A stretch of DNA of 64,000 nucleotides. Source: an uncultured Acidobacteriota bacterium. Lineage in GTDB: Bacteria; Acidobacteriota; UBA6911. Each line of letters begins with the position of its first letter. Position 1 is the first letter of the stretch. A program made the position numbers and the translations under genes. Positions 3,840-64,000 of this stretch are shown here, piece after piece. Where the stretch lies: NCBI GenBank assembly GCA_963809485.1, contig CAWEJX010000004.1:96001-160000 (forward strand), in the 5' to 3' direction. The notes beneath the pieces are model-generated. The model worked only from the letters and a program-made list of their open reading frames with translations. It searched no databases and was not told where the DNA came from.

Positions 3840-4224
3840 GTCAGGTACCGGAGGCTTGAAGGATTTGAACCCCTCAAAGCGTTGGAGGAGTTACGCCGGT
3901 CTTGAACGCTGACTTACGCGGGCAAAAGCCGATGAGGCGCTTCCGATCCCCGCAGAGGCCAGCGCTCCGCGCTGGACAGTTTTCTGCGGCGGCACTGTGG
4001 CAAGAGCCGTGCGGCAAGGAGATGAAGGGTATGAGAAACCGGGCGTTTGCCACAGTGCCGCCGCAGAAAACTTCATCGGAAGCGCCTCATCGGCTTTTGC
4101 TCGCCGACCCTCGCCGAACAAATCCGCGTTTGTCAGCGCTTTTATCAGCGTTTCTCAGCGTTTCAAAATACGGAGCTGTCAAACTCTTTGAGTCCCCCGG
4201 CAGAGCCGGGGGTTTACCAATGTG
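3840..4224 (-). mobile_element. non-autonomous IS200/IS605-type element (MITE/PATE-like), copy 1
   Basis: near-identical to 10591-10986 and 38901-39298; terminal hairpin CCCCCGGCAGAGCCGGGGG; flanked by ATTA (TAAT on minus). Confidence 0.8.
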
Positions 4225-4286
4225 ATTATCGTCAGAACCGGTATGTCGCACTTTCAATCAAAGCATACATCAGGGGGCATAAGGAT

Positions 4287-5552
4287 ATGAGCAAAGCGCT
4301 TGAGCAGGACAAGACTCCACAGGAACTGCGACGCGAAAGAGAACAAAGAATCACGGACGCCATCAATCTTAGAATTCCGGACAGGGTTCCAGTCGCTTGC
4401 GATCTGGGTTTCTTCGTGGCCAAATACGCCGGCATACCCTGCTCCGCTGCCTACTATGATAGCGATGCATGGTTGGCGGCGTACCGAAAGACACTCCAGG
4501 ATTTCCAGCCCGACATGGCGTTTGTCCGGGCTCCCACTTCAGGAAAAGCTCTGGAATATATGAATCCGAGATTTCAGCGATGGCCCGGTCACGGGGTAGA
4601 TCCCAACCATGGGATGCAGGCGATCGAAATTGATAGCCTGAAGGACGACGAATACGACCTCTTCATCAACCATAATGCGGACTTCGGCATCCGATGCCAT
4701 TTGCCGCGTATCTACGGAAGCCTGGAAGCTCTGTCGATGCTTCCGCAGCTGTCCAACACGAATTGGGTTGAGCCCTGGGCTGCGCAGACGCTAGCCATGC
4801 TTGTTACGGAACCCAAAATCGAGGCCGCGATTGAAAATCTTCAGAAGGCCGGCCGGGAGATGAGGAGCTTCCAGCCTAAGGTGGACGAATTCAATCAGCT
4901 GCTGCTCGACTACGGCATACCGCAGTTGTACCAGGGGGCGGCGATGCCACCCTTCGACGTAATTTCCCACAGCGTGCGCGGCATGAAGGGTACGATGCTG
5001 GACATGTACCGCCAGCCTGACAAGATCCTGGAGGCCTGCGAATTTTTGCTCAGGAAAACGCTGGAAAAGCCGATTGCGCCGCCTAATGAATACGGCAACC
5101 TGAGATATTTCATGACCAATACCAGGGGTTCCGACGACTTCATGTCCATGAAGCAGTTCGAGACCTTCTACTGGCCAACGTTTAAAAAGCTTGTCCTGGC
5201 GCTGGTCGAGCGGGGAGTGACTCCGTGTATTTTCTTCGAAGGCAACTTCACATCACGTCTGGAGCGCCTGCTGGAATTCCCGAAAGGAAAGGTGCTCGTC
5301 CGCCTCGATACCACGGATATATTCAAAGCAAAAGAAATCCTCAAGGATCATCTTTGCATTGAGGGGAACATCCCGTCTTCACTTCTGCAGATAGGATCGG
5401 TCCAGGAGGTTAAAGACTATTGCAAAAAGCTGATCGACACCGTGGGCAAGGGCGGCGGTTACATCCTGGGACCCAGGAGTTCCACCGATGAGGTCAAACC
5501 GGAAAACCTTAAAGCCATGATCGACTATACAAAGGAATACGGTCGGTATTAG
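4287..5552 (+). CDS. uroporphyrinogen decarboxylase / MtaA-CmuA methyltransferase family protein
   Basis: PDRVPV N-terminus; PFDVISHSVRGMKG; FETFYWPTFKK; GNIPSSLL...GGGYIL...EVKPENLKAMID..KEYG C-terminus. Confidence 0.85.
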   Translation: MSKALEQDKTPQELRREREQRITDAINLRIPDRVPVACDLGFFVAKYAGIPCSAAYYDSDAWLAAYRKTLQDFQPDMAFVRAPTSGKALEYMNPRFQRWPGHGVDPNHGMQAIEIDSLKDDEYDLFINHNADFGIRCHLPRIYGSLEALSMLPQLSNTNWVEPWAAQTLAMLVTEPKIEAAIENLQKAGREMRSFQPKVDEFNQLLLDYGIPQLYQGAAMPPFDVISHSVRGMKGTMLDMYRQPDKILEACEFLLRKTLEKPIAPPNEYGNLRYFMTNTRGSDDFMSMKQFETFYWPTFKKLVLALVERGVTPCIFFEGNFTSRLERLLEFPKGKVLVRLDTTDIFKAKEILKDHLCIEGNIPSSLLQIGSVQEVKDYCKKLIDTVGKGGGYILGPRSSTDEVKPENLKAMIDYTKEYGRY

Positions 5553-6934: not shown

Positions 6935-7069
6935 ATCCGGGCTTTCAGTTTATTGACCTCGCTCAGGAATCCCAAATAGCCTGATAGCAAAAAATATCGC
7001 CAATCTTCATGCAGATTACTTTTGTTGATTTTCTATTGGAGTTATTGCGAGATTGCGCAACAATTTATT

Positions 7070-7756
7070 ATGGTCTCACCACAAAAAATTATCCGGAAAC
7101 GCAGCCGTCGCGAAATCCTAAGAATGGGCTCCGCCGTCAGCGGCATCGTCGCAAGTGGATCCATACTGCGCACATCCAGTCTTCTGGCCGCACAGGAGCC
7201 GGCCTCAGCCCTTCCCTGGCCCTGGAAGGAAATCGAGCCGGCCAGCATCCAGGAACGCGCGTATCAATCAACATGGTCAAAAAACGCCTGCATGTTCGGC
7301 ATCCTCGAGGCTGTGCTTGGGACATTGGCCGATAAATACGGCGCTCCTTACAGCATCTTTCCGGTGGGCGCCGTTTTATACGGCAGCGGCGGCTTTGCCG
7401 GCACCGAATCACTATGCGGCGCCATCAATGGATGCGGGCTGCTTTTCGGCCTTTTCGCCAGGAAAGAGCGGGACATTTTCGCTCTCTCGAGAGAAATGGC
7501 TCGCTGGTACGAGACTGCGAACCTGCCGGCCTACAAGCCGAAGGATCCCAAATTGGATATCCCCATTGTCCAGTCGGTAGCCGGTTCAACCCTCTGCAGT
7601 ATCTCGTCGAACGTCTGGACCAAGGTCTCCGGCCACAAGCTTCTGAGCATGCAGCATATGGAACGATGCAGCCGTCTTGTCGCCGATGTCGCGATGCAGG
7701 CCGTCACCCTTCTTAACGGTTACGGTACCGGCAAGAGTCCTGTAAAAAAGGGCTAA
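7070..7756 (+). CDS. C-GCAxxG-C-C family redox protein with Tat-like signal
   Basis: SRREILR twin-arginine motif; NACMFG...GGFAGTESLCGAING...STLC...ERCSRL. Confidence 0.8.
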   Translation: MVSPQKIIRKRSRREILRMGSAVSGIVASGSILRTSSLLAAQEPASALPWPWKEIEPASIQERAYQSTWSKNACMFGILEAVLGTLADKYGAPYSIFPVGAVLYGSGGFAGTESLCGAINGCGLLFGLFARKERDIFALSREMARWYETANLPAYKPKDPKLDIPIVQSVAGSTLCSISSNVWTKVSGHKLLSMQHMERCSRLVADVAMQAVTLLNGYGTGKSPVKKG

Positions 7757-8032: not shown

Positions 8033-8210
8033 TTCGGAACCGCTCAAAGCGGTTGGAGTAGTTACGCTGGTCTTGAACGCTGACTTACGCCGACCCTCGC
8101 CGAACAAATCGGCGTTTGTCGGCGCTTTTGTCAGCGTATCTCAGCGTTTCAAAATACGGAGCTGTCAAACTCTATGAGTCCCCCGGCAGAGCCGTGGGTT
8201 TACCAATAGT
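8018..8210 (-). mobile_element. IS200/IS605-type MITE copy 2 (internal hairpin deleted)
   Basis: GAACCGCTCAAAGCGGTT...GACTTACGC|CGACCCTCGCCGAAC...GAGTCCCCCGGCAGAGCCG; ATTA flank. Confidence 0.75.
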
Positions 8211-8343
8211 ATTAACCGATGGCATACGCCGCCAGGAGTCAGCGTTCCTTCGCGCTGTATTCAGCCCGTGTCTGCCTTAGCCGATTCCGGATCAAAGCAG
8301 GAGGCCAGCCGGCCGCCTCTGCAGATCATCGGGCGTGTCCCTA

Positions 8344-9849
8344 TTATGACAAATACTTGACGGCGTTCTCTCCTGCAATGCGGCCGGAGTTGAGGGCAAA
8401 GCCGACCAGGTGCCCGGTGAGGCGGTAGCAGTAAGCCTCCGATTCCCAGCACCCGGAGGTCGAGCCCGCTGCGTACAGCCCCGGGATTGGATTGTCCTCA
8501 GTATCGAGCGCCTGCATGCGCTCATCGATCTTGATCCCGCCATACGCGTCGCACAATGCCACGTGACTCTTGACAGCATAGTAGGGAGGAGTCCGCAGAG
8601 GCAGCAGATATCTGCGGTCTTTGGCAAATAAAGGATCGTGCCTGTCGTCGCAGGCGGCATTGTATTCTTCTATCGTAGCCTTCAGGACGGCCGGATCGGA
8701 TCCCATCCAGGCGGCAATTTCGCCCCAGGAGCCGGATATCTTCAAATCGCCCTTATCCGCCTGTTTGCGCATTTCCCTCTCCAGACCGGGCAACGGAGTC
8801 GCCGCTGAAACCGGCAGCCAGTTGGCGCGGGAGGCGGCTCCGGGCCTGATAAGCCCCTCCTTTTCGATGGTCCGCATCGTGTCCCTGTCGAAAAGCGTAT
8901 AGCAGATTCCGTCCGGTTGCAGGCAGACTGCGTTGCCGAAGGCGAAGAAAGCAAGGTTGTAGCCTTCGTCGATGAATCTTCTGCCTCTTTTGTTCACCCA
9001 AAGCATCTGCGGTTCCCAGGCAAGAAACCACAGCGAGATTTTTATGAGCGACCCGTCGGGTCCCTTTGCGTCCATCTTCAACATCTCAGAATCGGACTTG
9101 GGCTTGAGGAATGGCGCGTGCAGGTTCATCGCGCCCATGCCGGCCGTCGCGGCGCCTATTTCAGCGGCCATTATTATACCATCCCCGGTATTGCTGGGCG
9201 GCCCGTCGTAGGAGATCGTGTCATGGAAGTACGGGCAGTATTTCTTCAGCATCTCCTTGTTGTTGCCATATCCGCCGGTAGTCACGATGACGCTTCGCGC
9301 CTCTATTTTAAATTCGCCCTGTTTGGATTCCGCCATAACCCCGCTGATTTTGCCCTTTTCATCCCTCAATATCTTCTTCCCGGGAGTGCGTGTGAGTATT
9401 TGAACTCCCAGGGCCTGACAGTTTTCGCGCAGCGTTTTCATCAGCGCGTTGCCGTGCCCCTTCACCGAATGGCGCACCAGAGGCACCTGGTTGGGGAAAT
9501 ACTGTATGAGCTCGAAGCTCAATCCCTTGCTTTCCAGCCAGCCGATCGTGTCCCCGGACTTGTCGATAAACGCGCGCACAATCCTGGGATTGATTCTCGT
9601 CCAGTGCGCCCATTCCATGGCTATCTTGAAAAGCTCGTCCTTGCGGGCGTCCACGCCCTGCCGTTTCTGAACCGGGCTTTCCGCGCCGAAAATGTCGTGG
9701 GCCATGGCAGTACTGCCGGCCGCAGAGCCTGCTTTTTCAAGCACAATGATGCTCTTGCACCCGTTTTCCGCAGCAGCCAGGGCTGCCGCCAGGCCGGCGC
9801 CGCCTCCGCCGATCACAACCAGGTCTGCCTTTAGGTTTTCAGCCGTCAT
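8344..9849 (-). CDS. FAD-dependent oxidoreductase (flavocytochrome c / fumarate reductase flavoprotein family)
   Basis: GGGGAGLAAA dinucleotide-binding motif; TGGYG; NTGDG; GGIKID; PIPGLYAAG; SGRIAG. Confidence 0.9.
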   Translation of the reverse strand: MTAENLKADLVVIGGGGAGLAAALAAAENGCKSIIVLEKAGSAAGSTAMAHDIFGAESPVQKRQGVDARKDELFKIAMEWAHWTRINPRIVRAFIDKSGDTIGWLESKGLSFELIQYFPNQVPLVRHSVKGHGNALMKTLRENCQALGVQILTRTPGKKILRDEKGKISGVMAESKQGEFKIEARSVIVTTGGYGNNKEMLKKYCPYFHDTISYDGPPSNTGDGIIMAAEIGAATAGMGAMNLHAPFLKPKSDSEMLKMDAKGPDGSLIKISLWFLAWEPQMLWVNKRGRRFIDEGYNLAFFAFGNAVCLQPDGICYTLFDRDTMRTIEKEGLIRPGAASRANWLPVSAATPLPGLEREMRKQADKGDLKISGSWGEIAAWMGSDPAVLKATIEEYNAACDDRHDPLFAKDRRYLLPLRTPPYYAVKSHVALCDAYGGIKIDERMQALDTEDNPIPGLYAAGSTSGCWESEAYCYRLTGHLVGFALNSGRIAGENAVKYLS

Positions 9850-10022
9850 AGCAACACGCCTCCCCTCTGATATGCAGTTCGAAAAATGATGCCACGAATT
9901 ATTTAGAATTATATGAATTCCGGAACGGGTATCACCAAAATTCGCGCAATTTTTCTCAATCCATAGTAATTTTGCTGTTGTTTGGCAGGATCGGACAACG
10001 GCATTCAAAGGAAAAAGCCCCC

Positions 10023-10590: not shown

Positions 10591-10986
10591 TTCAGTTACC
10601 TCCGGCAAAGCCGGAGGCTTGAAAGATTGGAACCGCTCAAGGCGGTTGGACTAGTTACGCCGGTCTTGAACGCTGACTTACGCGGGCAAAAGCCGATGAG
10701 GCGCTTCCGATCCCCGCGGGGGCCAGCGCTCCGCGCTGGACAGTTTTCTGCGGCGGCACTGTGGCAAGCGCCGTGCGGCAAGGAGATGAAGGGTATGAGA
10801 AACCGGGCGCTTGCCACAGTGCCGCCGCAGAAAACTCCATCGGAAGCACCTCATCGGCTTTTGCTCGCCGACCCTCGCCGAACAAATCGTTTGTCAGCGC
10901 TTTTATCAGCGTTTCTCAGCGTTTCAAAATACAGAGCTGTCAAACTCCTTGAGTCCCCCGGCAGAGCCGGGGGGTTTACCAATGTA
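10591..10986 (-). mobile_element. IS200/IS605-type MITE copy 3 (full length)
   Basis: both end hairpins CCTCCGGCAAAGCCGGAGG and CCCCCGGCAGAGCCGGGGG; internal long inverted repeat. Confidence 0.85.
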
Positions 10987-11047
10987 ATTACGCCGGCGGC
11001 GATTCCGGTTTTCCCTGCACTGGTTTGTCTCTACGGCAGAGGAGCTT

Positions 11048-12727
11048 CTACCTCCACTTGTCGACCTCGACGCTCTGCAGATACATCAGTCCGCCGATGC
11101 TGTAGTAATTGTTGTTGGTTCCGCCGGTGACGATGATTTCCATCGCATTGGGCTGGAACCAGGGCTCCTGCCCTGCCGGCGCTTCCATCAGGTATTTCTT
11201 GAAATCATCAATCGTATTGTAACCGGCATTCTTGACAAAATTGGCGATCGGCGGGCTGAGGACCGCCGTGGCGCCGAAAAGGAACGGGGCCTGTGTGATA
11301 AAGATATCCTTGATGATCTTGGGGAAATTCATCTCTTTGCCCCAGACGTTGGCCCTCCAGTTTTTCGCCGATAGAACGCCCCATCCTTCAAACAGGCTCA
11401 CGATGTTCTGGTTCGGCTTGAAGCCCTTTCGAACTGAAAATGGCTGCCACGGGGAATCGCGCTCGTTCTCGGCAATGACGATGTTGATCAGGTTCATGGG
11501 ATTCCCCACGGTGCCCATGTAGGTCGTCCCCACTTTGCCGCAGTTGCCCAGGTTGATGGCGATCAGGCTCCACGCTCTTCCAATGGTGGTATTGGCATGG
11601 GCATACGGCCCCAGCGCGCCGATCTCATAGTTCAGCCCGATCTCGTCGCGGATCGCGCCGTTGATTACCAGGGCGCCCACAAAGCCGTTGTCGGACACCG
11701 AGATGGCTTCCTTTCCGGTGGACGCCACCGCAAGCAGCAGCGGCAGATATTCCGGTTTGCAGCCGGCCATGACTGCATTCACGGCAACGTCTTTGACCGT
11801 GAAGGTCCAGTACTCAAAATAGCCGCCGGTGTTGGTGGGCGACATCTTGCCGACAATTTCATCGGGATCGTGGCTGGTTCCCTTCAGCATGTCGGCGACC
11901 TTCTCCTCGGTCGGCAGAACCACCGGCAGGAAATCGGTCCACCGCTTTTCCAGAAACATCTTCTGAAGATTATCGGGAGTATCCGTAAATGTAGCCGGGC
12001 CTTTGTCCCGGACCAATTCGCCGGTCCTCTTTTCTTCAGCCGTCAACGGCTTGGTCAGATGCTCGACGATTTCCTGCATGACGTTCTTTTTGCTGATCGG
12101 ACTGATGCCGTTGACGACATCCCGGCGCAACTGTTCGCGGGTTTTTCCCCAAACCGGACCGCGAACCCACTCGATGCGCAGGCCGGGCATGCCTTTGAGA
12201 AGGGCGGCCTCTGTTTCCTGTTTGTAGAATTCGGAAAGGACCAGCGGAACGGCGGGAATACCCATGCTTGCTTCGAAATTGATGGAGTGGCCGACAACTG
12301 CCGGCGCACATTGGCTTCAATGGCCCATCCCGATGATTACGGCAGCGGCATTCTGCTTGATTTCGGCCCACAACTGCGGATCTTCAGCCTCAAAGCCCAT
12401 GCCGCCTTTTCTCTTGAACACAACCTTGGTCTTGGGCATGTTCTGTGTAAACCAGTCCACCATTTCGAGCAGAAGGTTGTCTCCTCCCACAAAGCCGTCG
12501 TCGACAATGTAGATTGTTTTGCCGTCGAGGGAGGCCGGACGCGGCGCCATTGATTTCAGTTTTACAGGGGGAGGATTCCCCAGCGGATTAAGCACCGTTA
12601 TCCTGGTCTCAGCGGAGGCTGCCGCCTTATTCCCCTGTGCCATAGCCTGATTGTCCAAAGCCGGGAAGCCGCAAAACAGGCCCAGGCAGAGCGCCGTAAT
12701 GACGGCCGTCGATATAAAGCCCTTCAT
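11048..12727 (-). CDS. exported UGSC-like selenoprotein (559 aa, Sec137, GMGH-U-SQC)
   Basis: ORFs 12317..12727 and 11048..12265 are in frame across a TGA at 12319-12317; signal peptide; SECIS-like hairpin; colinear with the uninterrupted paralog 25619-27379. Confidence 0.88.
12290..12305 (-). promoter_or_regulatory. bacterial SECIS-like hairpin GCCGGC-AGTT-GTCGGC
   Basis: starts 11 nt after the UGA; G in the apical loop; same geometry in three paralogs. Confidence 0.75.
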
Positions 12728-13059
12728 TGATTCATTACTCCTTTGATTTGGATTGGGATGGAATGCTTCCCCGGACCGCCCGCCAGGAGTGAGTAAGAAA
12801 ACCGCATGCGGGCGCGAGGCTTACATGGTCAATTCCCAATATTCCGTTACATTTTAAATCGTCCATCCCAACCTGCAGCCAACCGGCAGCAGGTTTGTCT
12901 GCATCCAATATGCGACGCAGACCATAACTGGGTTACATTAAACCATCAGCCGATCATCCTTATGACGGAGATCGCCTTCACTGTAGGCAGACGCTCCAGC
13001 ATCTGTCAAGGGCAAGGCAAATGACAGATGCGGCGCCGGACTAATTGGGCAGCCTGAAA

Positions 13060-13294
13060 GTCAGGTACCTCCGGCAAAGCGGAGGCTTGAAAGATTTGAA
13101 CCGCTCAAAGCGGTTGGACTAGTTCCGCCGGTCTTGAGCGCTGACTTACGCGGGCAAAAGCCGATGAGGCGCTTCCGATCCCCGCCGAACAAATCGGCGT
13201 TTGTCAGCGCTTTTATCAGCGTTTCTCAGCGTTTCAAAATACGGAGCTGTCAAACTCTTTGAGTCCCCCGGCAGAGCCGGGGTTTACCAATGTA
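13060..13294 (-). mobile_element. IS200/IS605-type MITE copy 4 (internal deletion)
   Basis: both ends present; deletion junction TTCCGATCCCC|GCCGAACAAATC. Confidence 0.8.
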
Positions 13295-13390
13295 ATTATG
13301 CTGCCGGCGTCGGAATCCTGCCCGAATTGTCGTAATATGCCGCATAATAGCCGACTATTGATGTCGTCGAACACAAAGGAGGTTCGCATC

Positions 13391-14803
13391 ATGAATGCAA
13401 GTTCAGCGAGAAAGACAATCCTGGAGCCGGCAAGGGATATAGAAATCTGCCGGGAGGCCGACGTCGTTGTTGTGGGCGGCGGGCCGGGAGGTATCGGATC
13501 GGCTCTGGCCGCGGCGCGCAGCGGCGCAGACACGGTGCTGGTGGAGAGGTACGGCCACCTCGGAGGCATGGCTACCGGCGGCCTGGTCACCATCATTCCG
13601 AACTTGAGCACCATAGACGGGAAGCAGCAGATAGCCGGCCTGTGCCAGGAACTGATTGACAGGCTGGACGCCAAAGGAGCAACGCACTATCCGAAGAAAG
13701 AGGACTGGGGCACCACGGACGAAAAGCTGGTCAAGTATTACATCGATGCAAACCTGGCCTGGTTCTACATACGCGACGACCTGAATATCGGCCGCAAAAG
13801 AGTGCTCTACACCGCCCTTTTCGATCCCGAAATCATGAAATGCGAGTTGAACACCATGATGGAGGAAGCCGGCGTAAAGCTGTATCTTCACTCGTGGGGC
13901 ACGCGGCCCATAATGGAGGGGAATACGGTTAAGGGCGTCTTTATCGAAAACAAGTCGGGAAGACGGGCGATCCTGGCAAAAGTGGTCATAGATTCCACCG
14001 GGGACGGCGACCTGCTGCAGCCTGCCGGCGCCGAGTGCGATACCCGGATGATCCCCGGCCTGAGAATTGCGGCCTTCGCATTTCCCTTCTGGATCGGCAA
14101 CATTAATATGAAGAAGGTCGAGGAATTCCGGCAAACCCAGCCCGACAAATACGCCGAATTGATGCAGGATCTTCGCCGGCAGGGCGGCGCCGCATTTTAT
14201 ATGAAGGACCTGGTGAAATATCACGACGGCGTCGTCTGGTACCACCCTTTCTTCCCATCAATGAAACAAGCAGATAATGATGAGATCAATCGGGTAGAAA
14301 TCGAAGGCCGCAAGAAAATGCTTCTCTCGTATGAGTTCTACCGGAAAAACGTGCCCGGTTTTGAGAACAGCTACGTCGCCCTCAGTTCACCGCAGCTTGG
14401 CCTCCAGGGTGGACAGAGAGTGGTCGGGGAGTACGTCTGCACGGCGAAAGACATGACGTCCGACGAAGTATTTCCCGACACCATTGCCATTTTCCCTGAC
14501 AACGACAACGGCGAGATCTCGGCCAAACACCCCAGTGTCTATGTCCCTTACCGAGCCCTGGTGCCGAAGAAAATCGACGGCTTGCTTGTCGCCTGCCGGG
14601 CGTTTTCCTCGGAATGGCAATATAACGAATACTTCAACCTGATCCCGCACTGCATCGCGATGGGGCAGGCGGCGGGAACAGCCGCAGCCTTGGCAGCAAG
14701 CGCAGGCATTCAACCCAGGCAGATTGATTGCGGCGCGCTGCAGAAGCGCCTGTTGCGCCAGGGAGTGATACTGCCCGACGAGATAGCGGGAAAGCGCGCG
14801 TAA
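13391..14803 (+). CDS. FAD-dependent oxidoreductase (FAD_oxidored family)
   Basis: VVVVGGGPGG; LGGMATGG; IDSTGDGD; VPYRALVPKKIDGLLVACR; MGQAAGTAAA. Confidence 0.9.
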   Translation: MNASSARKTILEPARDIEICREADVVVVGGGPGGIGSALAAARSGADTVLVERYGHLGGMATGGLVTIIPNLSTIDGKQQIAGLCQELIDRLDAKGATHYPKKEDWGTTDEKLVKYYIDANLAWFYIRDDLNIGRKRVLYTALFDPEIMKCELNTMMEEAGVKLYLHSWGTRPIMEGNTVKGVFIENKSGRRAILAKVVIDSTGDGDLLQPAGAECDTRMIPGLRIAAFAFPFWIGNINMKKVEEFRQTQPDKYAELMQDLRRQGGAAFYMKDLVKYHDGVVWYHPFFPSMKQADNDEINRVEIEGRKKMLLSYEFYRKNVPGFENSYVALSSPQLGLQGGQRVVGEYVCTAKDMTSDEVFPDTIAIFPDNDNGEISAKHPSVYVPYRALVPKKIDGLLVACRAFSSEWQYNEYFNLIPHCIAMGQAAGTAAALAASAGIQPRQIDCGALQKRLLRQGVILPDEIAGKRA

Positions 14804-20949: not shown

Positions 20950-21032
20950 TAAATGTCAGCGTTCATCGGCGCTTTTGTCAGCGTATATCTGCGTTACCAA
21001 ATCCGGGAACTGTTAAGCTTCATGCCCCCGGA
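20950..21032 (-). repeat. degenerate remnant of the MITE end
   Basis: TCGGCGCTTTTGTCAGCGTATATCTGCGTT...CTGTTAAGCTTCATGCCCCCGG resembles the element's CCCCCGG-hairpin end. Confidence 0.5.
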
Positions 21033-22323: not shown

Positions 22324-23187
22324 ATGATGCGGGCAATCACACTGTTTGCGCTGCTTGGCTGCACCTTGTCTTTGCGGGCGGAGACCGTCCCGATTAGCGC
22401 CGAGAAAGCCGCATGCACACGAGCGGGGCTCCAGCAGACCGTAAACCTATATCTGGATGCCCTGAAAAAAGGCAATCCCTCGCTTATGCCGCTTGCCGAG
22501 GGGGCGAGATACATCGAAAACAGGAAAGTGGTTCCGTTCGGCCAGGGCATCTGGCAAAGCCCCCTGGAGATTGATTTTCACCGCAGCCTGCTCGATGTCG
22601 AAACGTGCGAGACATTCACGGAGATAATCCACGCGAGCGGCAGTCACCCTTACGTTCTCGGTACACGCCTGAAAATACTAGACGACAAGATCGCTGAGGT
22701 TGAAGCCCTCGTCACCGACCAGGACGACTGGCTTTTCAACGCTTCAAACTACCTGAAATACTCCTCTCAGGAGAAGTGGGACATACTCCCCCCGGCACGG
22801 CGCAGCGATCGGGAGACTTTGCTTAAGGCGGCCAACGCCTATTTCGACGTGTTTTCGAATCCGGCATCCTCCTCCAATGTGCCGTGGGGCATCCCATGCG
22901 CCCGCCTTGAAGGAGGCGCATACACCAATCCCAAAGGCGAGCCCGATGCTTCCTGTACGGGCGGCCCGCCGCTGGAAGGCAGCGTCAAAATCGTCAACCG
23001 GCGCTTTATGGTCGACCTGGATATGGGAACCGTCGTCGGCCTGGTGGACTTTGGAGAAGAGAACGGCTGGCCCGATTCCCACATATTCCGCCTGGAAGAC
23101 GGGAAAATCCGATACGTTCACACACTGACCGTATGCCCCAATGGCTGCGCACTTCCTTCACCGAAGGAGTCAGCGAAACCTCAATAG
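22324..23187 (+). CDS. secreted protein with tandem SnoaL-like fold
   Basis: AAGGAGG RBS; signal peptide; YIEN...GQGIW; AANAYFD; CARLEGG; SHIFRLEDGKIRYVH. Confidence 0.7.
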   Translation: MMRAITLFALLGCTLSLRAETVPISAEKAACTRAGLQQTVNLYLDALKKGNPSLMPLAEGARYIENRKVVPFGQGIWQSPLEIDFHRSLLDVETCETFTEIIHASGSHPYVLGTRLKILDDKIAEVEALVTDQDDWLFNASNYLKYSSQEKWDILPPARRSDRETLLKAANAYFDVFSNPASSSNVPWGIPCARLEGGAYTNPKGEPDASCTGGPPLEGSVKIVNRRFMVDLDMGTVVGLVDFGEENGWPDSHIFRLEDGKIRYVHTLTVCPNGCALPSPKESAKPQ

Positions 23188-25618: not shown

Positions 25619-27379
25619 ATGAAAGAGAAAGTTGCGTTCACATGCCTGAATCCTCAGGGTGCAGTCGATATCGCCGCTCCTGCGGGTCTGACCGCTCCCC
25701 GCGTCAAAGACCTGGCCGGCAAGAGAGTCGGCATTTTCTGGGATGGCAAAAAGGGCGGCGACAACTTCTGCATCGCGCTGGAAGAGGCTCTGAAAAGGAA
25801 ATATCCCACAGCCCGGTTCATCCGCCTCGTATGGGGAGACGTCGAGGCGGCGGAGAAAAGCAAAAACGAAGTGGACACATTTGTCTTTGGTGTCGGCGAT
25901 GCGGGAATGGGGGGATGGGGCCAGTGCCGGAATGTAATGGACCTGGAAAAACTCGGCAAACCCGGAATTTTTGTAGTGGGAGAGAATGCCATTCACACGG
26001 CAAGAATGTCGGCGCGCGACTCGGGAATGCCCGGATTGCGGATCGTGAGCCTGCCTTCCATAGATTATTACCCCAACCGCTCGACGGCAGACGGACTGAG
26101 ACCTGTGGTAGAGGCACGCATAAGCCTCATTATCGACGCCTTAACCAAACCCCTGACGCCCGAGGAGAAGAATCCATCTTTGATGCCGCAAAGAGAGTTT
26201 CCGGCAAAAGTCAGGATTTCCGCCGAGAGCTATGAATTCGCACTGGATGAGTTCAACCGGGTATACCTCGAAAACCATTGGGGGGACGGCTTACCCCTTA
26301 TTCCTCCCACAAAAAAAGCCGTCAAGCGGATGCTTTCGGGGACCAAACGTTCCCCGGACGAGATTCTGGGCAAGATCCCCTTCCGCAACGGAATTGCCAC
26401 GATCGGGAAGGTGGCTGTGAACGCAGTGATGGCGGGCGCCAGGCCGGAGTACCTGCCCGTGATCATCGCCGCTATCGAATGCCTTGCCGAGGAGGGCTCC
26501 TTTTCTCACATGATGAGTTCGGAGGGCTCGTTCACCCTGATGATCATGGTCAGCGGGCCTATCTGCAGCGAGATCAACATGAATTCCGGCGTGGGACTGT
26601 TGGGCCATGGATGGCAGGCCAACAATACCATCGGTCGTGCCGTAAGATTGTGCATGACGAACCTGGGATATCTATGGCCCGGAGAAATCGATATGGCCCT
26701 GATCGGCCGCCCTTCCTCGCACACTTTCTATACCTTCGCCGAAAACATGGAGCAGAGCCCCTGGGAATCATTCAACGCGGGCCTGGGTTACGGGCCTGAG
26801 GACAGCTGCGTAACGCTTTCCACGGTTGGCGGCGCCGGTGGATTGGGCATGAAGATATACGGCGGAGGCGTGGTGGAACCCTGGGATGCTGCGGAGGTCC
26901 TTCAAAGCATGGCTGAGGAAGTGGCCGGCGATAGGGCGATATTTGCGGCTTACAAACTGGGAGTCGCCAATTATTTCGCTCATTTCCGCAAGCACATCAT
27001 GATCATTCATCCCGAACTGGCGATCATGCTGCAGCGTCTCGGATACAAAACCAAACGCAGTTTGCGCGACTACTTTTACGAGAGCTCAAGAGTGCCGTTT
27101 GAAGAACTCACCCTGGATGAGGTCAAGGGCTTAAGAGACAGGATGAACACAAAGCCGGGCGGAGTGTTCTTTGCGAACGATTCGATTGCCGCAAGCCAGC
27201 TTCCGCTTTTTAAGGCAGCTCTCAAACCGGGCGGCAAAGTCCCGGTAGTGAACCCCGACGACATCCACCTGATTGTCTCCGGCAGCATACCGGGATATTC
27301 GTTCGGCATGTCGTATATGCGTTCGGCGCACAAAACAAAACGCATCCAGGGGGCCAAGTTAACACGGTCCGGCCGCTGA
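25619..27379 (+). CDS. UGSC-like protein lacking Sec/Cys (GVGD-A-GMG), cytoplasmic
   Basis: colinear with the three selenoproteins (LNP.G...APR...L.GK; W.DGLP.IPPT; VAVNAVMAGA.PEY.P; ANNTIGRA); GGAGG RBS; no signal peptide. Confidence 0.85.
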   Translation: MKEKVAFTCLNPQGAVDIAAPAGLTAPRVKDLAGKRVGIFWDGKKGGDNFCIALEEALKRKYPTARFIRLVWGDVEAAEKSKNEVDTFVFGVGDAGMGGWGQCRNVMDLEKLGKPGIFVVGENAIHTARMSARDSGMPGLRIVSLPSIDYYPNRSTADGLRPVVEARISLIIDALTKPLTPEEKNPSLMPQREFPAKVRISAESYEFALDEFNRVYLENHWGDGLPLIPPTKKAVKRMLSGTKRSPDEILGKIPFRNGIATIGKVAVNAVMAGARPEYLPVIIAAIECLAEEGSFSHMMSSEGSFTLMIMVSGPICSEINMNSGVGLLGHGWQANNTIGRAVRLCMTNLGYLWPGEIDMALIGRPSSHTFYTFAENMEQSPWESFNAGLGYGPEDSCVTLSTVGGAGGLGMKIYGGGVVEPWDAAEVLQSMAEEVAGDRAIFAAYKLGVANYFAHFRKHIMIIHPELAIMLQRLGYKTKRSLRDYFYESSRVPFEELTLDEVKGLRDRMNTKPGGVFFANDSIAASQLPLFKAALKPGGKVPVVNPDDIHLIVSGSIPGYSFGMSYMRSAHKTKRIQGAKLTRSGR

Positions 27380-27617: not shown

Positions 27618-27722
27618 GTCAGGCACCTCCGGCCTTGCCGGAGGCTTGAAAGATTTGAACCGCTCAAAGCGGTTGGACTAGTTACCCCGGTCTTGAACGC
27701 TGACTTACGCGGGCAAAAGCCG
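27618..27722 (-). mobile_element. IS200/IS605-type MITE copy 5 (one end only)
   Basis: GTCAGGCACCTCCGGCCTTGCCGGAGGCTTGAAAGATTTGAACCGCTCAAAGCGG...GGGCAAAAGCCG. Confidence 0.7.
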
Positions 27723-27739
27723 GAGGATTTTTGAGCAAA

Positions 27740-29545
27740 TCAGTCCGGAAGATGCGCTGCCTTGCCGGGAATCACGGGTATCGCCGTGAATTGATCCTGA
27801 TTTTGGAAAACGCCTATTGCCGTAAAGCTTCCGCCGCCTTGAGCCCGTATCACAATCGATCCTTTGTAGCGAAACTCGGAGTCATTGAGATCTTCATGGA
27901 GATAGCGGGCGACCTGCTGTCCGGGGGCAAGGCGAATCGTAATTCTGTCTTTGTCCAGCTTGCCCATCTGGTCGACGAGCCCGATCTTTATCGTGACGTT
28001 TCGCGACGTTGGGTTCGACAGTGCATACGAGGTTAATTGGCGCTGGCTGTAGTCGTCATAAACGGGAATCGTGGCATACTGCATCAGCGCGGATGGGAGC
28101 ACTCCGACGGCGCTGGTCAACACTTCGTCGATCACAAGTTTATACATCGATACGGCATAAACGGATCCTCCGGAACTCAGAATTTCGGCGGACCCCACCT
28201 TGACAGGATCCTCGGGATTCAGGGCTTCGGCAATCACAAAACCGACGCTTCCAGGGGCCAAATCAAAAGAGAACTCGGAATCGATCACGCTTACGGGATC
28301 GCTGCCGGGAAGGCTCCAGGTGGCATTGACTGCGAAGGGATTTCCCAGCTGATCAAAAAGCCTGAGGGTGGCCGAGGTGGTGTCCGCACCATTGTTACCA
28401 ATGGTGATCACCGTGGCGTACCCTCCGCCTGCAGCGAACTGCGAGAAAAATGTGGCGACGCCCAGCGCTCCCGACACCTTCCGTACCCTGTGATTTCCGG
28501 TGTCCGCAATGAGCAGATTACCCAAAACATCGGCGACGACTCCTACCGGGCCGTTGAGCCGGGCTGATGTTGCGGGGCCGCCATCCCCGGTGAAACCGAT
28601 TGCGCCCATGCCCGCAATAGTGGTGATGACACCCTCTGGCGTTACCTGGCGAACTGCGTTGTTATATGTGTCCGCGACGAGCACATTGCCCCACGCATCA
28701 AGCTTGACGCTGGATGGCGAATTCATTTCTGCGGAAATTGCGGGCCCCCCGTCGCCGCCGTAACCGAAGGAGGAACTGCCGGCAATGGTCGTGATAATTC
28801 CAGCCGGACTGACTTTGCGGATTCGATTGTTGAAGGTATCCGCAATATAAATGCTGCCGTCCGGACCAATTTCGACCCCAAAGGGAGCGTTGAGAAGAGC
28901 CGAGGTGGCCGGGCCTCCGTCTCCGTCGAAACCGCTGAGTGTACCTCCGGCCACGGTGCTTATAATTCCCGTGCGCGTCACTTTGCGAATGCGATTATTG
29001 AAGGTATCCGCTATATAGAGGTTGCCCTGCACATCGATATCTATACCGAAAGGATTGTTGAGCTGGGCTGATGTGGCGAGCCCTCCATCGCCGCTGAAAC
29101 CCGGTGTCCCCTTGCCGGCGACGGTTGTGATGATTCCCGACTGCGATATTTTGCGGATGCGGTTATTATAGCGGTCCGCCAAATAAAGGTTGCCGTCCGG
29201 GTCAAAGGCCAATCCGGAAGGAGCCGATAGTGCCGCCGACGTGGCCTGGCCTCCATCCCCGCTGAAACCCTGCATCCAGATGCCGGCTATGGTGCTGATC
29301 TTCCCGTCTGCCGTAAGCTTGCGGATGCGATGATTGAAGGTGTCCGCCAGATAGATATTTCCCGCGGGATCAACCTCAAGGCTCAACGGGCTGTTCAGCT
29401 CCGCAGAAAGGGCCGGAATGCCGTCGCCGTTATAGCCTTGCGCCCCGTTGCCGGCAATCGTGTTGATAACGGATGCTGCAAATACAGATGCACCGGCTAA
29501 CGCGATGCATAAAGCGGCTGCGCCGATTCTAAAAAATGTCTTCAT
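27740..29545 (-). CDS. secreted NHL-repeat (teneurin-like) beta-propeller protein
   Basis: about 6 repeats of GFSGDGGPATSA.LN.P.G...D..GN.YIADT.N.RIRKV; signal peptide; acidobacterial-type C-domain (FSQFAAGGGYAT). Confidence 0.9.
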   Translation of the reverse strand: MKTFFRIGAAALCIALAGASVFAASVINTIAGNGAQGYNGDGIPALSAELNSPLSLEVDPAGNIYLADTFNHRIRKLTADGKISTIAGIWMQGFSGDGGQATSAALSAPSGLAFDPDGNLYLADRYNNRIRKISQSGIITTVAGKGTPGFSGDGGLATSAQLNNPFGIDIDVQGNLYIADTFNNRIRKVTRTGIISTVAGGTLSGFDGDGGPATSALLNAPFGVEIGPDGSIYIADTFNNRIRKVSPAGIITTIAGSSSFGYGGDGGPAISAEMNSPSSVKLDAWGNVLVADTYNNAVRQVTPEGVITTIAGMGAIGFTGDGGPATSARLNGPVGVVADVLGNLLIADTGNHRVRKVSGALGVATFFSQFAAGGGYATVITIGNNGADTTSATLRLFDQLGNPFAVNATWSLPGSDPVSVIDSEFSFDLAPGSVGFVIAEALNPEDPVKVGSAEILSSGGSVYAVSMYKLVIDEVLTSAVGVLPSALMQYATIPVYDDYSQRQLTSYALSNPTSRNVTIKIGLVDQMGKLDKDRITIRLAPGQQVARYLHEDLNDSEFRYKGSIVIRAQGGGSFTAIGVFQNQDQFTAIPVIPGKAAHLPD

Positions 29546-30120
29546 CGAAAAAACTCCTTGCCTTGGGAACTCGGGGGATGAACGGTTGACAATTTCCACC
29601 CATGACTTCGCGTTTATAATACTTGTTTATGTTTTGGACGCAAGCAAGAACGGCTTATGCGCCAGTTTCTCTTCAGGCGGAGAGCAAGGGAAGCTGTCAG
29701 GAAGCAAAGGCTTTTCGCCCCGATAACGCATCAGCAAAACTCCGGTCTTGACGGGAGACTTCATAGAGTTTGGCTGCTTCGGGACCATGGGATCAGGAAA
29801 TCAGACATACGCTGAAAATAATGATGATGAACGTTCAGGACTTCATTTCAGTCAAGATAAGGATCAGCAGCCAAAGGACTCGAATCAGAGATGCATATTT
29901 TCTGCGACAGATGAATATTTTTTAAATGCACCTAATAAGTTCTTTATTATCAATGATATAATAATTTATCATCAAAAACTGATCCTCGATTGCCCTCCAA
30001 GTGTATATTGAATGCATACACCTGAAGCAAAACAGTAAACGGTTTATTCAACCCAAATAATCGTATAAATACTTTAATAATAATAACTTAGCCGTAATGG
30101 TCGAGCCTTTTGGAATGATT

Positions 30121-31453: not shown

Positions 31454-31765
31454 GGGACCCGTTCGTCAGCACTTATGTCAACGCAGGTCCGCCTTTTCGA
31501 CCATGGCGTTGTCAAACTCCATCCGTCCCCCGGCAAGGCCCGTGGTTCGCCGGTGGAATATCCTGTCCGCGGCAGGCACTGAGGATTGGACTGTCCAAGT
31601 CTGCGTCTGTCGACTATAATCGCGACAGGTTCGAGCTTTGGACGTTGCAGTGCGTGCATCGCCGGTGGAGAGAATCTCTGCAATCGGCAAAAGCATCCCG
31701 CACTGCCTGGCATAACAGGTAGGGGAATTGCCGAAATGGCGAGATTTGAAAGGGGAGAATTGGCG

Positions 31766-38900: not shown

Positions 38901-39298
38901 GTCAGGCACCTCCGGCAAAGCCGGAGGCTTGAAAGATTTGAACCGCTCAAAGCGGTTGGACTAGTTACGCCGGTCTTGAACGCTGACTTACGCGGGCAAA
39001 AGCCGATGAGGCGCTTCCGATCCCCGCAGGGGCCAGCGCTCCGCGCTGGACAGTTTTCTGCGGCGGCACTGTGGCAAGCGCCGTGCGGCAAGGAGATGAA
39101 GGGTATGAGGAACCGGGCGTTTGCCACAGTACCGCCGCAGAAAACTCCATCGGAAGCGCCTCATCGGCTTTTGCTCGCCGACCCTCGCCGAACAAATCGG
39201 CGTTTGTCAGCGCTTTTGTCAGCGTATCTCAGCGTTTCAAAATACGGAGCTGTCAAACTCCATAAGTCCCCCGGCAGAGCCGGGGGTTTACCAATAGA
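38901..39298 (-). mobile_element. IS200/IS605-type MITE copy 6 (full length), between cusB and cusA
   Basis: both end hairpins; the ATTA flank overlaps the cusA ATG. Confidence 0.85.
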
Positions 39299-39301
39299 AT
39301 T

Positions 39302-61373: not shown

Positions 61374-63161
61374 ATGAAAAACAGAGCAAGTTGTTTGCTG
61401 ATAGGGATCTTTTGGGTGACGGCCCTTTTGTCGGAATCGCTTTGGGCCGCGGATATTACAAAGATCACGGTGCTGAATCCGCGAGGCGTTCAGCCCCCGA
61501 TACGCTTGATACCCATGGCTCCCCGCCTCGATACATTGGATGGGAAGACGATCTACGTCGTGGATACCAAGTATCCGTTGACAAGGCCATTCGTACAGGA
61601 AGTCTTCAATGTGCTCAAGGAGAGGTATCCAAAAACAAACTGGATATTCCGGGACAAAATCGGCAGCTATTTTGATGATGATCCCAAGCTTTGGGCCGAG
61701 ATCAAGGAGAAAGGCCACGGCATGGTTATGGCCGTCGGGCATTGAAGCACCTGCTCGCCGGCGGTCGCCGGCCATTGTATCTCGGTTGAGAAGTTGGGTG
61801 TGCCAAGTGCCCCCATCATTACCGAAAGGTTTCAGGACCTTGTCCGGACCATTTCATGGAAGAAGGGGGTGCCGAACATGCGCTTTACATTTGTTCCGCA
61901 TCCCGTTGCAGGCAAAGCCGCCGACATTTGCCGTCGATACTTGCTGGGCAACGATCCGCTGACAGGAAAGCCGGTTGTGGACGAACTTGTGGCGGCCTTG
62001 ACGCGACCGCTGTCCGCGGACGACATGAAGAAGGGATTTCTGACAAGAGATCCGCGGCCGAGAATGCTGAAACCTGATACCGCAGCAAACCTGGAAAAGC
62101 TATTCAATGACAGTCTGTGGACGGACGGGCTTCCTATTGTGCTTCCGACAGAAGACAAAGTCGCCGAGATGCTCAGGGCCACCAGTCACAAGGCGGATGA
62201 GACCGTAGGCACGATGCGTCCGTCGCCTCCGCACGAAGCGTGGGAATACACGGTCGAAATGGTTGCGGCCAACGCGGTGATGGCGGGAGCAAAGCCCGAA
62301 TATTTTCCGGTTATCCTGGCCCTGGCCTCAACGGGAGTGACCTCGCTTTTCACATCTACGACGTCTTTTGCCCGGATGATGGTGCTGAACGGGCCGATCA
62401 TCCAGCAGATCAATATGAACACAGGCATTGGAGCCATGGGACCTTTCAATCAGGCTAATGCCACGATTGGAAGAGCCTGGACGCTAATATCCAAGAACCT
62501 GGGCGGAGGAGGGGTTCCCGGCGAAACCTATTTGGGCAGCCAGGGCAGCAATCTCAATTACAACAATCTGTGTTATCCGGAAACGGAAGATGGCTTGCCT
62601 GCCGGGTGGAACCCTCTCCACGTGCAAAAGGGTTTCAAAAAGAACGACAGCGTCGTGAGCACCTTCACGGGCTGGAGCATCAGCAACTATGGCGGCTACA
62701 TAAGCCTGCCGCACAACGAAATCATGAAGTGGCAGCTGCAAAACTTTTTCACGAGCGGGACCGGAAGCAATGGGTCGGCTACTCTCCTGTTGGATCCCGT
62801 GGTCGCCAGAGACCTGAAGGATAGGTTTGACACAAAAGAAAAACTGGTCGAATGGCTCGCTCAAAATGCCACGACGCCGGCCTGGCATTACTGGGCTCGG
62901 GGAGAAGATCAGCTGAAACAGGCAAAATCGGGGGTCGAACCTTTTGCGTCCTATCTGAAATTGGGGGAGATTGCGTCATTGCCCGTTTCGCCCTTCCTCC
63001 GGAGGCCTATGGCTGCGAAGACTCCATCTCAAGGCAAGCCGCCCGACGGCCCTCCGCGCTCCCCGATCGAGATCATTGTGGTGGGAGGAGGCACGAATGC
63101 CTTCTGGGTTGCGGGAGACTTCAGCTATGTCTCCAGTGCTTCCGTCGACAAGTGGAGGTAA
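61374..63161 (+). CDS. exported UGSC-like selenoprotein (595 aa, Sec124, AVGH-U-STC)
   Basis: ORFs 61374..61745 and 61794..63161 are in frame across TGA 61743-61745; signal peptide ending SLWA; SECIS-like hairpin. Confidence 0.9.
61757..61772 (+). promoter_or_regulatory. bacterial SECIS-like hairpin GCCGGC-GGTC-GCCGGC
   Basis: 11 nt after the UGA; perfect 6-bp stem; loop starts with G. Confidence 0.78.
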
Positions 63162-63281: not shown

Positions 63282-64000
63282 ATGAAAAAGAGGATCGGTT
63301 GGCCGGCATTCGCAGTTTGTCTCCTTGCCTGCCTTGTTATTTCGTGCACCCAAAATCCGGAACAGCGGACGCTTACGGTCTTGAATCCTGTCGGCTCGGC
63401 TTCTCCGACTCCGCTGATCCCGATGGCGCCTCGCCTGGATACGCTGGAAGGAAAGACCATCTATATCGTGGATGTGATGTATCCGCTCACTCATCAGCTA
63501 TTCGAAGAAATGCAGAAAGTGCTGTCCGAAAAATACCCCAAGACGAACTGGGTGGTCAAAAGCAAGGCGGGCACCTACTTTGATAATGACCCTAAACTGT
63601 GGGAAGAAGTCAAGGCGCAAGCCCAGGGAATGATCATAGGCGTCGGCCATTGAAGCAGCTGCACGCCGGCGGTCGCCAGCCATGCTATTACGGTCGAGAA
63701 ACTTGGAGTGCCCACAGCCCCCATCGTCACCAGTCGATTTCAGGATGTCTCAGAAGCCACTGCCGCCAGCAAGGGCATGCCCCGGGCACGATTCACTTAT
63801 ATCCATCACCCGGTTTCGAACAAGCCTGCGGCGGAGTGCCGAAAATACATCGAGGGCAACGATCCTTTGACCGGCAAACCGGTGGTTGAGGAGATTGTAG
63901 CCGCTCTAACCAAACCATTATCGGATGAGGATAAAAAGACCGGGTTCGTGGAAAAACCTCGGGAAAGGCTGCTAAAACCCGATACAGCGCAGAATCTGGA
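63282..64000 (+). CDS. lipoprotein UGSC-like selenoprotein (Sec124, GVGH-U-SSC), runs off the window
   Basis: lipobox-like LVISC; TGA 63651-63653; the frame stays open (SSCTPAVASHAITVEKLGVP...KPDTAQNL) and aligns with the upstream paralog. Confidence 0.88.
63665..63680 (+). promoter_or_regulatory. bacterial SECIS-like hairpin GCCGGC-GGTC-GCCAGC
   Basis: 11 nt after the UGA; same loop as the 61757 hairpin; one C-A mismatch. Confidence 0.7.

Follow-up and report, generated by a model that had tools for sequence, protein, structure and literature searches.

A TGA-split gene pair of an uncultured Acidobacteriota bacterium probably encodes an exported, two-domain selenoprotein of the UGSC type

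The DNA analyzed here, called the window below, is a stretch of 64,000 nucleotides from an uncultured Acidobacteriota bacterium (assembly GCA_963809485.1, contig CAWEJX010000004.1, positions 96,001 to 160,000), and all coordinates refer to it. Two neighbouring open reading frames (ORFs) on its minus strand are one gene, called P1 here, for a protein of 559 residues with one in-frame TGA. Our overall reading, to which we assign a probability of about 0.85, is that P1 is a UGA-decoded, exported two-domain selenoprotein of the UGSC type with a U-x-x-C redox centre. That the in-frame TGA encodes selenocysteine is, to judge from the sequence comparisons described below, very likely.

The original prediction held that a 136-aa ORF ending in GMGH-TGA runs in frame into a 405-aa ORF, and translation with TGA read as U bore this out. 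The ORF list places the first at 12317..12727 (ending in ..AAAVIIGMGH) and the second, in the same frame, at 11048..12265. Translation from 12727 to 11048 gives a single frame of 559 residues in which U137 is the sole non-standard codon, and the sequence around it is GMGH-U-SQCAPAVVGHSINFEAS-MGIPAVP. The UxxC motif noted at this site is likewise present and reads U-S-Q-C. Among the 27 well-supported ORFs listed for the window, the stop codon is TGA in 12, TAA in nine and TAG in six. TGA is thus an ordinary stop elsewhere in the window, and the in-frame TGA of P1 is not to be explained by a changed genetic code. When the whole window was scanned for further ORF pairs split by TGA, the three UGSC paralogues were the only convincing cases; the rest resembled frame noise or adjacent genes.

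If the TGA were a true stop, there would be two genes, one for a secreted protein of 136 aa and one for a cytoplasmic protein of 405 aa, and the likeness to one-piece homologues would go back to an ancient gene split. Gene callers do report this pair of ORFs, both in the window and for hundreds of relatives, and an ATG is present 18 codons past the TGA. Inspection of the sequence upstream of this second ATG (12265) found no Shine-Dalgarno-like site; one is present 5' of the first ATG (Table 1). The 17 codons between the TGA and the second ATG are conserved in frame (SQCAPAVVGH..), a Cys codon is found at exactly the U137 position in relatives, and both a Pfam domain and the predicted fold span the stop with high confidence. 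A split would also leave half a beta/alpha domain in each product, with only the first half exported. We consider a genuine stop at this codon very improbable.

A tblastn search of the window with the read-through P1 protein found three further copies (Table 1). Two of them, P2 and P3, have the same TGA at the homologous codon, in agreement with the original prediction, and the paralogue described near 25619 as a single ORF across the site was recovered as P4. In the MAFFT alignment, GVGD-A-GMG of P4 stands opposite GMGH-U-SQC of P1, so that P4 has neither selenocysteine or Cys at the site nor the Cys at +3. P4 shares the two-domain architecture, with a score of 54.4 bits to Pfam PF24696. Its sequence suggests that it is a non-redox and probably cytoplasmic member of the family within the same genome. 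Pseudogene decay or sequencing error, as an account of the three TGA copies, has nothing in its favour beyond the presence of the stop. The stop falls at the same codon in three paralogues (37-42% identity) that are otherwise open, and TGA is found at that codon at 72 further sites in other genomes; this explanation is effectively refuted.

A search for Cys-aligned homologues of the read-through protein had been suggested with the original prediction. Scored on residues 40-215, our homologue search gave 131 proteins of 307-979 aa, and the site was surveyed in 50 homologues of at least 500 aa, including P0077 from a separate search. Cys was found at the site in 33/50 of these full-length homologues, in the form GH-C-S(T/S)-C. 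The other forms were GH(M/L)DT(L/M) in eight, GQLDTC in seven, AQLGSR in one and GHLSFC in one (P0077). In addition, a scan of genome contigs yielded 80 loci that are 35-70% identical to P1. Their hosts are Acidobacteriota (many of them 'Candidatus Acidiferrales'), Desulfobacterota, Chloroflexota, Binatia, Rokubacteria, Alpha- and Betaproteobacteria, and others. In the 95 tblastn hits over the 80 loci, the codon opposite U137 was TGA in 78, TGC in 14, and TGT, CTG and TTA in one each; a motif scan of 90 sites, three of them in the window, gave TGA at 75, TGC at 14 and TGT at one. TGA with in-frame similarity was found in P1, P2 and P3 and at the 72 further sites across the 80 loci, and identity to P1 at the surveyed sites falls to about 33%, in several phyla.

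Public protein sets hold the two halves of long-form UGSC genes separately. Among the best 120 near-length database hits, 119 were shorter than 500 aa, with a query cover of 67-75%, and all seven near-length pieces that were fetched begin after the TGA. The best 120 short hits (97-150 aa) all end in MGH (76) or LGH (44).

Selenocysteine users exist in the Acidobacteriota, Occallatibacter riparius being listed with three selenoprotein genes in Table 2 of PMC12013277. One TGA-form homologue (L050:10352) was found on a contig labelled Candidatus Nitrosocosmicus sp., an ammonia-oxidising archaeon. Ammonia-oxidising archaea are not known to use selenocysteine, and mis-binning or gene transfer could account for the presence of the TGA form on this contig.

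A likeness to the UGSC (seleno)protein family, proposed in the original prediction with D-U-G-S-C given as the usual motif of that family, was confirmed by profile searches. Pfam UGSC (PF24696) covers residues 45-205 of P1, across the TGA, with 84.9 bits (E 9.4e-24, gathering cut-off 25 bits), and matches 42/42 family members of our alignment A2. The 125-bit cut-off of NCBIfam NF041046 (UGSC_fam equivalog, 147 positions) was missed by P1 (50.9 bits), P2 (62.4) and P4 (42.4), and all eight long forms tested scored below it, at 25-80 bits. With PF24696 passed and the NF041046 cut-off missed, the window copies are long-form relatives of the canonical UGSC protein of ~147 residues. By these sequence matches, P1 is a long-form member of a known, functionally uncharacterised selenoprotein family. 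The literal U-G-S-C motif was not found in the window copies, which have U-S-Q-C, U-S-T-C and U-S-S-C, and UxxC alone is kept; the motif scan of the loci showed U-G-G-C at the site in some Acidiferrales-type relatives. Searched with the 405-aa ORF and counted as representatives at 50% identity, the family comprises 3,546 members at E<=1e-3, 1,903 at E<=1e-10 and 207 at E<=1e-30.

According to the literature on the family (PMC1976440, PMC2398784, PMC9312934, PMC13188914), UGSC was first noted in Hyphomonas neptunium. The UGSC-containing protein is described as a predicted selenoprotein with a UxxC motif and unknown function, and UGSC was among the most abundant selenoprotein families in ocean-survey samples, with 255 selenocysteine and 21 Cys forms (PMC2398784, Table 2). 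It is still given as uncharacterised in reviews of 2022 and 2026. The canonical family (PF24696; NF041046; for example ABI76733.1, attributed to Hyphomonas neptunium) has the UxxC motif and the alternation of selenocysteine and Cys in common with P1, but P1 has H-U-S-x-C rather than U-G-S-C, and its long form adds a domain of ~350 residues and a putative signal peptide. The 'UGSC/Unknown_1' fusion from ocean metagenomes, mentioned in the domain-fusion section and the Fig. S1A legend of PMC2398784, resembles P1 in joining a UGSC domain to a conserved domain of unknown function; the fused domains in that account were noted for conserved Cys, whereas the C-terminal domain of P1 has no invariant Cys. 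P0145 (533 aa, from a Burkholderiales metagenome-assembled genome), which NCBI names 'UGSC family (seleno)protein', scores 80.4 bits to NF041046. It has the two-domain architecture of P1 and 46% identity to it in the N-terminal domain, but is a Cys form (GH-C-STC) and has no signal peptide.

The published model of the bacterial selenocysteine insertion sequence (bSECIS), as given in the Fig. 2 legend of PMC13188914, has a loop of 3-9 nt with G in loop position 1-2, a stem of at least 4 bp, a spacing of 16-37 nt after the UGA and an energy of <=-7.5 kcal/mol. Hairpins of P1 and P2 (Table 1) pass both a strict and a looser implementation of this model. The core of the P1 hairpin, GCCGGC-AGUU-GUCGGC, lies at +15..+30 with a spacing of 17 nt from UGA to loop, and its energy is -9.0 kcal/mol for 6 bp in the strict test and -12.8 kcal/mol for 9 bp with a bulge in the looser test. 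The GGUC loop of P2 and its G-U position, one nucleotide off, presumably resemble the E. coli fdhF element. A contiguous hairpin of at least 4 bp was found in the zone at 73/75 TGA sites and 5/15 Cys sites, GU in the loop at 62/75 and 2/15, and a stem of at least 4 bp closing a GU loop at 65/75 and 2/15, respectively. The mean stem of GU loops was 4.61 bp in the native TGA sites versus 3.07 bp after synonymous-codon resampling, and 2.33 versus 2.41 bp in the Cys sites. The GU-containing loops lie 17-21 nt 3' of the UGA. Clades that differ after the Cys (APAV, APGA, TPAT, SPEV, SASV, SPTV) have the stem at the same place, made of different nucleotides. The original prediction of a selenoprotein made by read-through is thus supported by the Cys-aligned homologues, the TGA kept in distant relatives and the SECIS-like hairpin.

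Read-through of the UGA need not involve selenocysteine: a near-cognate tRNA (e.g., for Trp or Cys) could decode it at a low level, or the read-through could be regulatory, with a mostly truncated product. The moderate strength of the hairpin evidence speaks for this version. The alternation of TGA with Cys codons (15/17 of the non-TGA tblastn hits), not with Trp, speaks against it, as do the UxxC/CxxC context typical of selenoproteins, the GU-containing loops at their spacing after the UGA, and the standing of UGSC as an established predicted selenoprotein family, with the selenocysteine and Cys counts cited above (PMC2398784, Table 2). We regard such decoding as improbable.

Several observations weigh against, or limit, the reading of P1 as an exported selenoprotein. 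The hairpin stem of P3 contains a C.A mismatch, and P3 fails both bSECIS tests; so do 31/32 sites of the Acidiferrales-type clade, and the remaining one passes the strict test. The strict test passes 22/75 TGA sites, 2/15 Cys sites and 219/3535 (6.2%) background in-frame positions, and the looser test 33/75, 2/15 and 401/3526 (11.4%), respectively. In a fixed-register 6-bp test, 73.6% of the cells were paired, which 3/500 shuffles reached, and 139/500 shuffles had at least as many pairs with both partners changed. Minimum free energy relative to synonymous resampling gave a mean z of -0.56 at TGA sites and -0.26 at Cys sites. Because the sequences are related, the hairpin counts are not independent and none of them is a probability; the hairpin statistics are moderate, not decisive. 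Rfam, run at gathering thresholds, gave no match in the whole window. Leu, Met or Ala is found at the site in some members (P0077, the GHMDTL group, the GQLDTC group and P4 of the window), and the existence of members without selenocysteine or Cys means that the C-terminal domain can do without the redox pair. A search with ARAGORN gave neither tRNA nor tmRNA in the window, and no selenocysteine tRNA (tRNA-Sec) among the nine tRNAs in the 80 loci. Finally, the signal peptide of P1 was judged by eye, with a hydropathy script.

The AlphaFold2 model of P1, built from a 42-row alignment, has a mean predicted local distance difference test score (pLDDT) of 86.7 and a predicted template modelling score (pTM) of 0.86. 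Residues ~70-190 form five consecutive beta-alpha units in the model, and H136-U137-S-Q-C140 lies between strand 129-133 and helix 141-153. The N-terminus of a helix is a classic place for a redox-active pair. For the N-terminal domain, the best Foldseek matches were to flavodoxin-like folds, namely type II dehydroquinase, CheY-like receivers, PurE, RpiB, UbiX and lobes of sugar-binding proteins, with probabilities up to 0.99 and every E-value above 1e-3; no thioredoxin was among the matches listed for the P1 model. A thioredoxin-like fold, suggested for UGSC in PMC2398784, is not supported by the predicted model, which points to a flavodoxin-like beta/alpha fold.

The C-terminal domain, whose fold is predicted with confidence, has conserved blocks (WTDxLPxxLPT, NAVMAG, GPxxANxTIGRA, AENE and a terminal DxWR), and in the family alignment it has no invariant Cys or His, the conserved residues being Asp, Asn, Glu and Arg. 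These ~350 residues gave no match in Pfam (E up to 5) or NCBIfam, and a sequence profile search of the PDB gave one spurious match (E 0.7). Foldseek of the full model against the PDB gave a best E of 2.6e-3, all matches being to the N-terminal domain or of high root-mean-square deviation. With a model of the C-terminal domain only (pLDDT 81.7), the best E was 0.05, with probabilities of at most 0.35 and TM-scores of at most 0.22. Foldseek matches of this domain to class I fumarate hydratase, 'Toblerone-fold' amidohydrolases and YjgF-like proteins were judged not meaningful. The ESM Atlas yielded unnamed clusters or ones named thioredoxin-like/UGSC, with no independent family lead. In four proteins of ~710-740 aa (P0360, P0373, P0379 and P0386), the C-terminal domain was matched in two stretches, and no UGSC or other Pfam domain was found in them. 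P0379, which was compared in detail, has two tandem copies of the core of the C-terminal domain. Its occurrence in tandem without a UGSC domain makes the C-terminal domain an independent module, and the tandem copies hint that it works as a dimer or pseudo-dimer. The members without selenocysteine or Cys (P4 and the GHMDTL and GQLDTC groups) argue that the nature of the reaction depends on this module and not on the UGSC domain.

The N-termini of the family were classed with a hydropathy script and by reading. P1 begins with MKGFISTAVITALCLGLFCGFPALDNQAMA followed by QG, and residues 1-38 are disordered in the AlphaFold2 model (pLDDT <50). P2 begins with MKNRASCLLIGIFWVTALLSESLWA followed by AD, which is signal-peptide-like, and P3 begins with MKKRIGWPAFAVCLLACLVISC and has a lipobox-like LVISC (63282-63350, plus strand). 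Given the lipobox-like stretch of P3 and the ordinary-looking signal peptides of P1 and P2, the three selenocysteine paralogues, as far as their N-terminal sequences go, may have different sites of anchoring. The relatives nearest to P1 (L001-L012 and short database fragments) have an N-terminus of the P1 kind. A canonical twin-arginine (Tat) motif, SRR[DE]FV, was found in L003 and P0077, and the Acidiferrales-type clade has a Tat-like N-terminus, NRRKLLSLLGMSPALLAG. No signal was seen in Chloroflexota, Binatia, Rokubacteria and most Cys forms. Since the putative Sec-type, Tat-like and signal-less forms split by clade, export appears to be a clade-level trait within one family.

The original prediction had called the H-U-S-x-C variant with an export signal unusual. 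This was overstated, given the precedents for exported selenoproteins and the mixed signals within the family. MccSep of Geobacter, a selenoprotein, has been shown experimentally to be periplasmic and to have its signal peptide cleaved off (bioRxiv 10.1101/2025.11.18.688581). According to the same preprint, annotation had, as for P1, divided its gene in two at the UGA, and a SECIS-like hairpin follows the UGA within 30 nt; unlike P1, it is a multihaem c-type cytochrome, unrelated in sequence family, and a polysulfide reductase. Similarly, bioRxiv 10.1101/2022.07.06.499078 predicts substrate-binding selenoproteins that carry a signal sequence, as well as a family of substrate-binding lipoproteins with some members split by TGA.

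We propose that SelB and tRNA-Sec would decode the UGA of P1 as selenocysteine, recruited by the hairpin, whose start lies 11-15 nt past the UGA and whose AGUU loop lies 17 nt downstream. The product would be a precursor of ~60 kDa, which the putative Sec-type signal peptide would send across the inner membrane, with cleavage after A30 following export by the Sec translocon. Mature P1 would consist of an N-terminal UGSC beta/alpha domain, with H-U-S-Q-C between strand 3 and helix 3, and of the C-terminal ~350 residues. The U-x-x-C pair would cycle between selenol/thiol and selenenylsulfide and, as the protein's own redox centre, would serve a reaction whose substrate is bound by the C-terminal domain, the selenocysteine acting as an electron relay or by direct nucleophilic attack. 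In the signal-less relatives, reducing power plausibly comes from an adjacent thioredoxin reductase (TrxR)-like flavoprotein with a CASC motif. A TrxR-like flavoprotein gene (~300-357 aa) directly adjoins the UGSC gene on the same strand in seven signal-less loci (L033, L042, L046, L047, L049, L062 and L070), downstream of it in six and upstream in L070. The TrxR-like protein of L046 has the CASC motif and scores 308 bits to TIGR01292, below the cut-off of 343.

By analogy with what has been proposed for PrdB of D-proline reductase, the selenocysteine could instead be the catalytic nucleophile of a reductive bond cleavage and not an electron relay; the C-terminal domain would then position a small acidic substrate, and the Cys at +3 would resolve the selenoether. 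The chemistry proposed for PrdB and glycine reductase is nucleophilic, and the PrdB/GrdB selenoproteins are linked to the thioredoxin system. The TrxR-like neighbour dedicated to the UGSC gene would fit this chemistry, as would a C-terminal domain whose conserved residues are Asp, Asn, Glu and Arg rather than Cys or His. PrdB/GrdB (PF07355) also has the UxxC motif in common with P1, as listed in Table 2 of PMC2398784, but no sequence similarity was detected and the analogy is functional only. Against a nucleophilic role stand the lack of a PF07355 (GRDB/PrdB) match, at E up to 5, in any of the 42 members, the lack of a pyruvoyl-subunit-like neighbour in our neighbourhood survey, and again the members without selenocysteine or Cys. 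We regard this role as possible, though unlikely. The positions of P1, its elements and its paralogues are listed in Table 1.

Table 1. Positions of P1, P2, P3 and P4 and of their sequence elements in the window.
Feature	Position	Strand	Description or basis
P1 coding sequence	11048..12727	-	559 codons + TAG stop, one in-frame TGA
P1 TGA codon 137, proposed selenocysteine	12317..12319	-	With C140 makes U-S-Q-C; translation, alignment, homologous codons
P1 Shine-Dalgarno-like AAAGGAG	12738..12744	-	9 nt 5' of ATG at 12727
P1 putative Sec-type signal peptide, codons 1-30	12638..12727	-	MK, hydrophobic core, A-M-A then Q; by eye and hydropathy script
P1 UGSC domain, residues 45-205	12113..12595	-	Five-unit beta-alpha fold; Pfam PF24696 and AlphaFold2 secondary structure
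P1 C-terminal domain, residues ~240-559	11051..12010	-	Uncharacterised; conserved blocks, predicted fold
P1 SECIS-like hairpin	12287..12309	-	GUG-C-GCCGGC-AGUU-GUCGGC-CAC, +11..+33 from U of UGA
P2	61374..63161	+	595 codons; tblastn single frame 61446..63158, 37% identity to P1, 580 columns, E 6e-110
P2 TGA, proposed selenocysteine	61743..61745	+	AVGH-U-STC (AVGH*STCSP)
P2 hairpin	61757..61772	+	GCCGGC-GGUC-GCCGGC, +15..+30, spacing 17 nt, -11.7 kcal/mol
P3	63282..64000	+	42% identity to P1; runs off window end
P3 TGA, proposed selenocysteine	63651..63653	+	GVGH-U-SSC (GVGH*SSCTP)
P4	25532..27379	+	615 aa, 29% identity to P1, no stop at site, no signal peptide visible

No neighbour is conserved family-wide, and the commonest neighbour cluster was found in 10/81 sources. 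A pyrroloquinoline quinone (PQQ)-dehydrogenase-like beta-propeller gene, which also matches 'acido-empty-quinoprotein group A' below the cut-off, lies nearby in 10 loci of the Tat-like Acidiferrales-type clade, and a glucuronoyl-esterase-like gene in five loci of this clade. Three to four tandem paralogues were found in several loci (L013, L016, L022), and P2 and P3 are in tandem in the window. Near P1 are two genes for oxidoreductases dependent on flavin adenine dinucleotide, one at 8344..10008 (minus strand), with vinyl-phenol-reductase/flavocytochrome-like matches below the cut-off, and the other at 13259..14803 (plus strand).

Several other features of the window were recorded. The ORF at 7022..7756 (plus strand), also near P1, has a C_GCAxxG_C_C 'putative redox-active' domain and a match to split-Soret cytochrome c below the cut-off; C_GCAxxG_C_C is counted among the selenoprotein families in the 2026 review (PMC13188914), and our scan of the window for TGA-split ORFs showed no in-frame TGA in this ORF. 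A repeated intergenic element of ~380 nt is present in direct orientation, with 75-98% identity between copies. Its full-length copies are at 3848-4228, 10612-10989 and 38922-39302, and partial copies are at 8036-8214, 13080-13299, 27639-27744, 31456-31559 and 20956-21006. The element ends in a CCCCGGC-AGA-GCCGGGG hairpin and has no Rfam match; copies lie on both sides of the P1 gene, and several end just 5' of plus-strand genes, such as the AcrB-like gene starting at 39302. A URO-D/MtaA-like gene (4047-5552, plus strand) is found near UGSC long forms in four sources (the window, L002, L036 and L073). Its listed TTG start overlaps the intergenic element, so that the true start is probably further downstream. 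In addition, a signal-peptide-bearing family without a Pfam match, with an N-terminal CDRxCL..Y.D.Y motif, recurs near exported UGSC long forms (22324-23187, plus strand, in the window; L005, L011, L015, L020, L037 and L038), with up to four copies in L037. Next to P4, at 27740-29599 (minus strand), is a gene for an NHL/beta-propeller repeat protein, with six repeat units spaced by 168 nt at 28563-29467.

Part of this is already known: a UGSC fusion was noted in 2008 (PMC2398784), and the Cys long form P0145 has its UGSC name from NCBI. Our literature searches on UGSC, Acidobacteriota and exported selenoproteins turned up no description of UGSC forms with Sec, Tat or lipoprotein signals, of the paralogue expansion in Acidobacteriota or the TrxR-like partner, or of the C-terminal module as an independent unit with an apparently new structure. 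Annotation wrongly gives P1 and at least two of its neighbours as hypothetical proteins, two for each gene; hundreds of database entries suffer from this error, and fixing the split annotation recovers a family of about 3,500 representatives at 50% identity. UGSC has been listed as a major environmental selenoprotein family since 2008 and is still without a known function. Handles on this function are the 350-residue domain, the TrxR-like partner in cytoplasmic forms, the exported multi-copy forms of Acidobacteriota, and culturable hosts of Cys forms, e.g., Rhizobium puerariae (locus L049).

A broader and, taken as a whole, rather doubtful reading is that long-form UGSC proteins are a large unrecognised class of two-domain selenoenzymes. 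The class may have been missed because annotation splits the genes, and its C-terminal domain may be the catalytic module, with a fold that the predicted models suggest is new. In soil and peat Acidobacteriota, these proteins may be periplasmic, by way of Sec, Tat or lipoprotein signals, and may be encoded in three to four tandem copies, with genes of the quinoprotein-like dehydrogenase and glucuronoyl-esterase-like kinds next to them. If this were true, selenium-dependent reductive chemistry on plant- or humus-derived compounds would take place in the periplasm, and part of Acidobacterial carbon turnover would depend on selenium.

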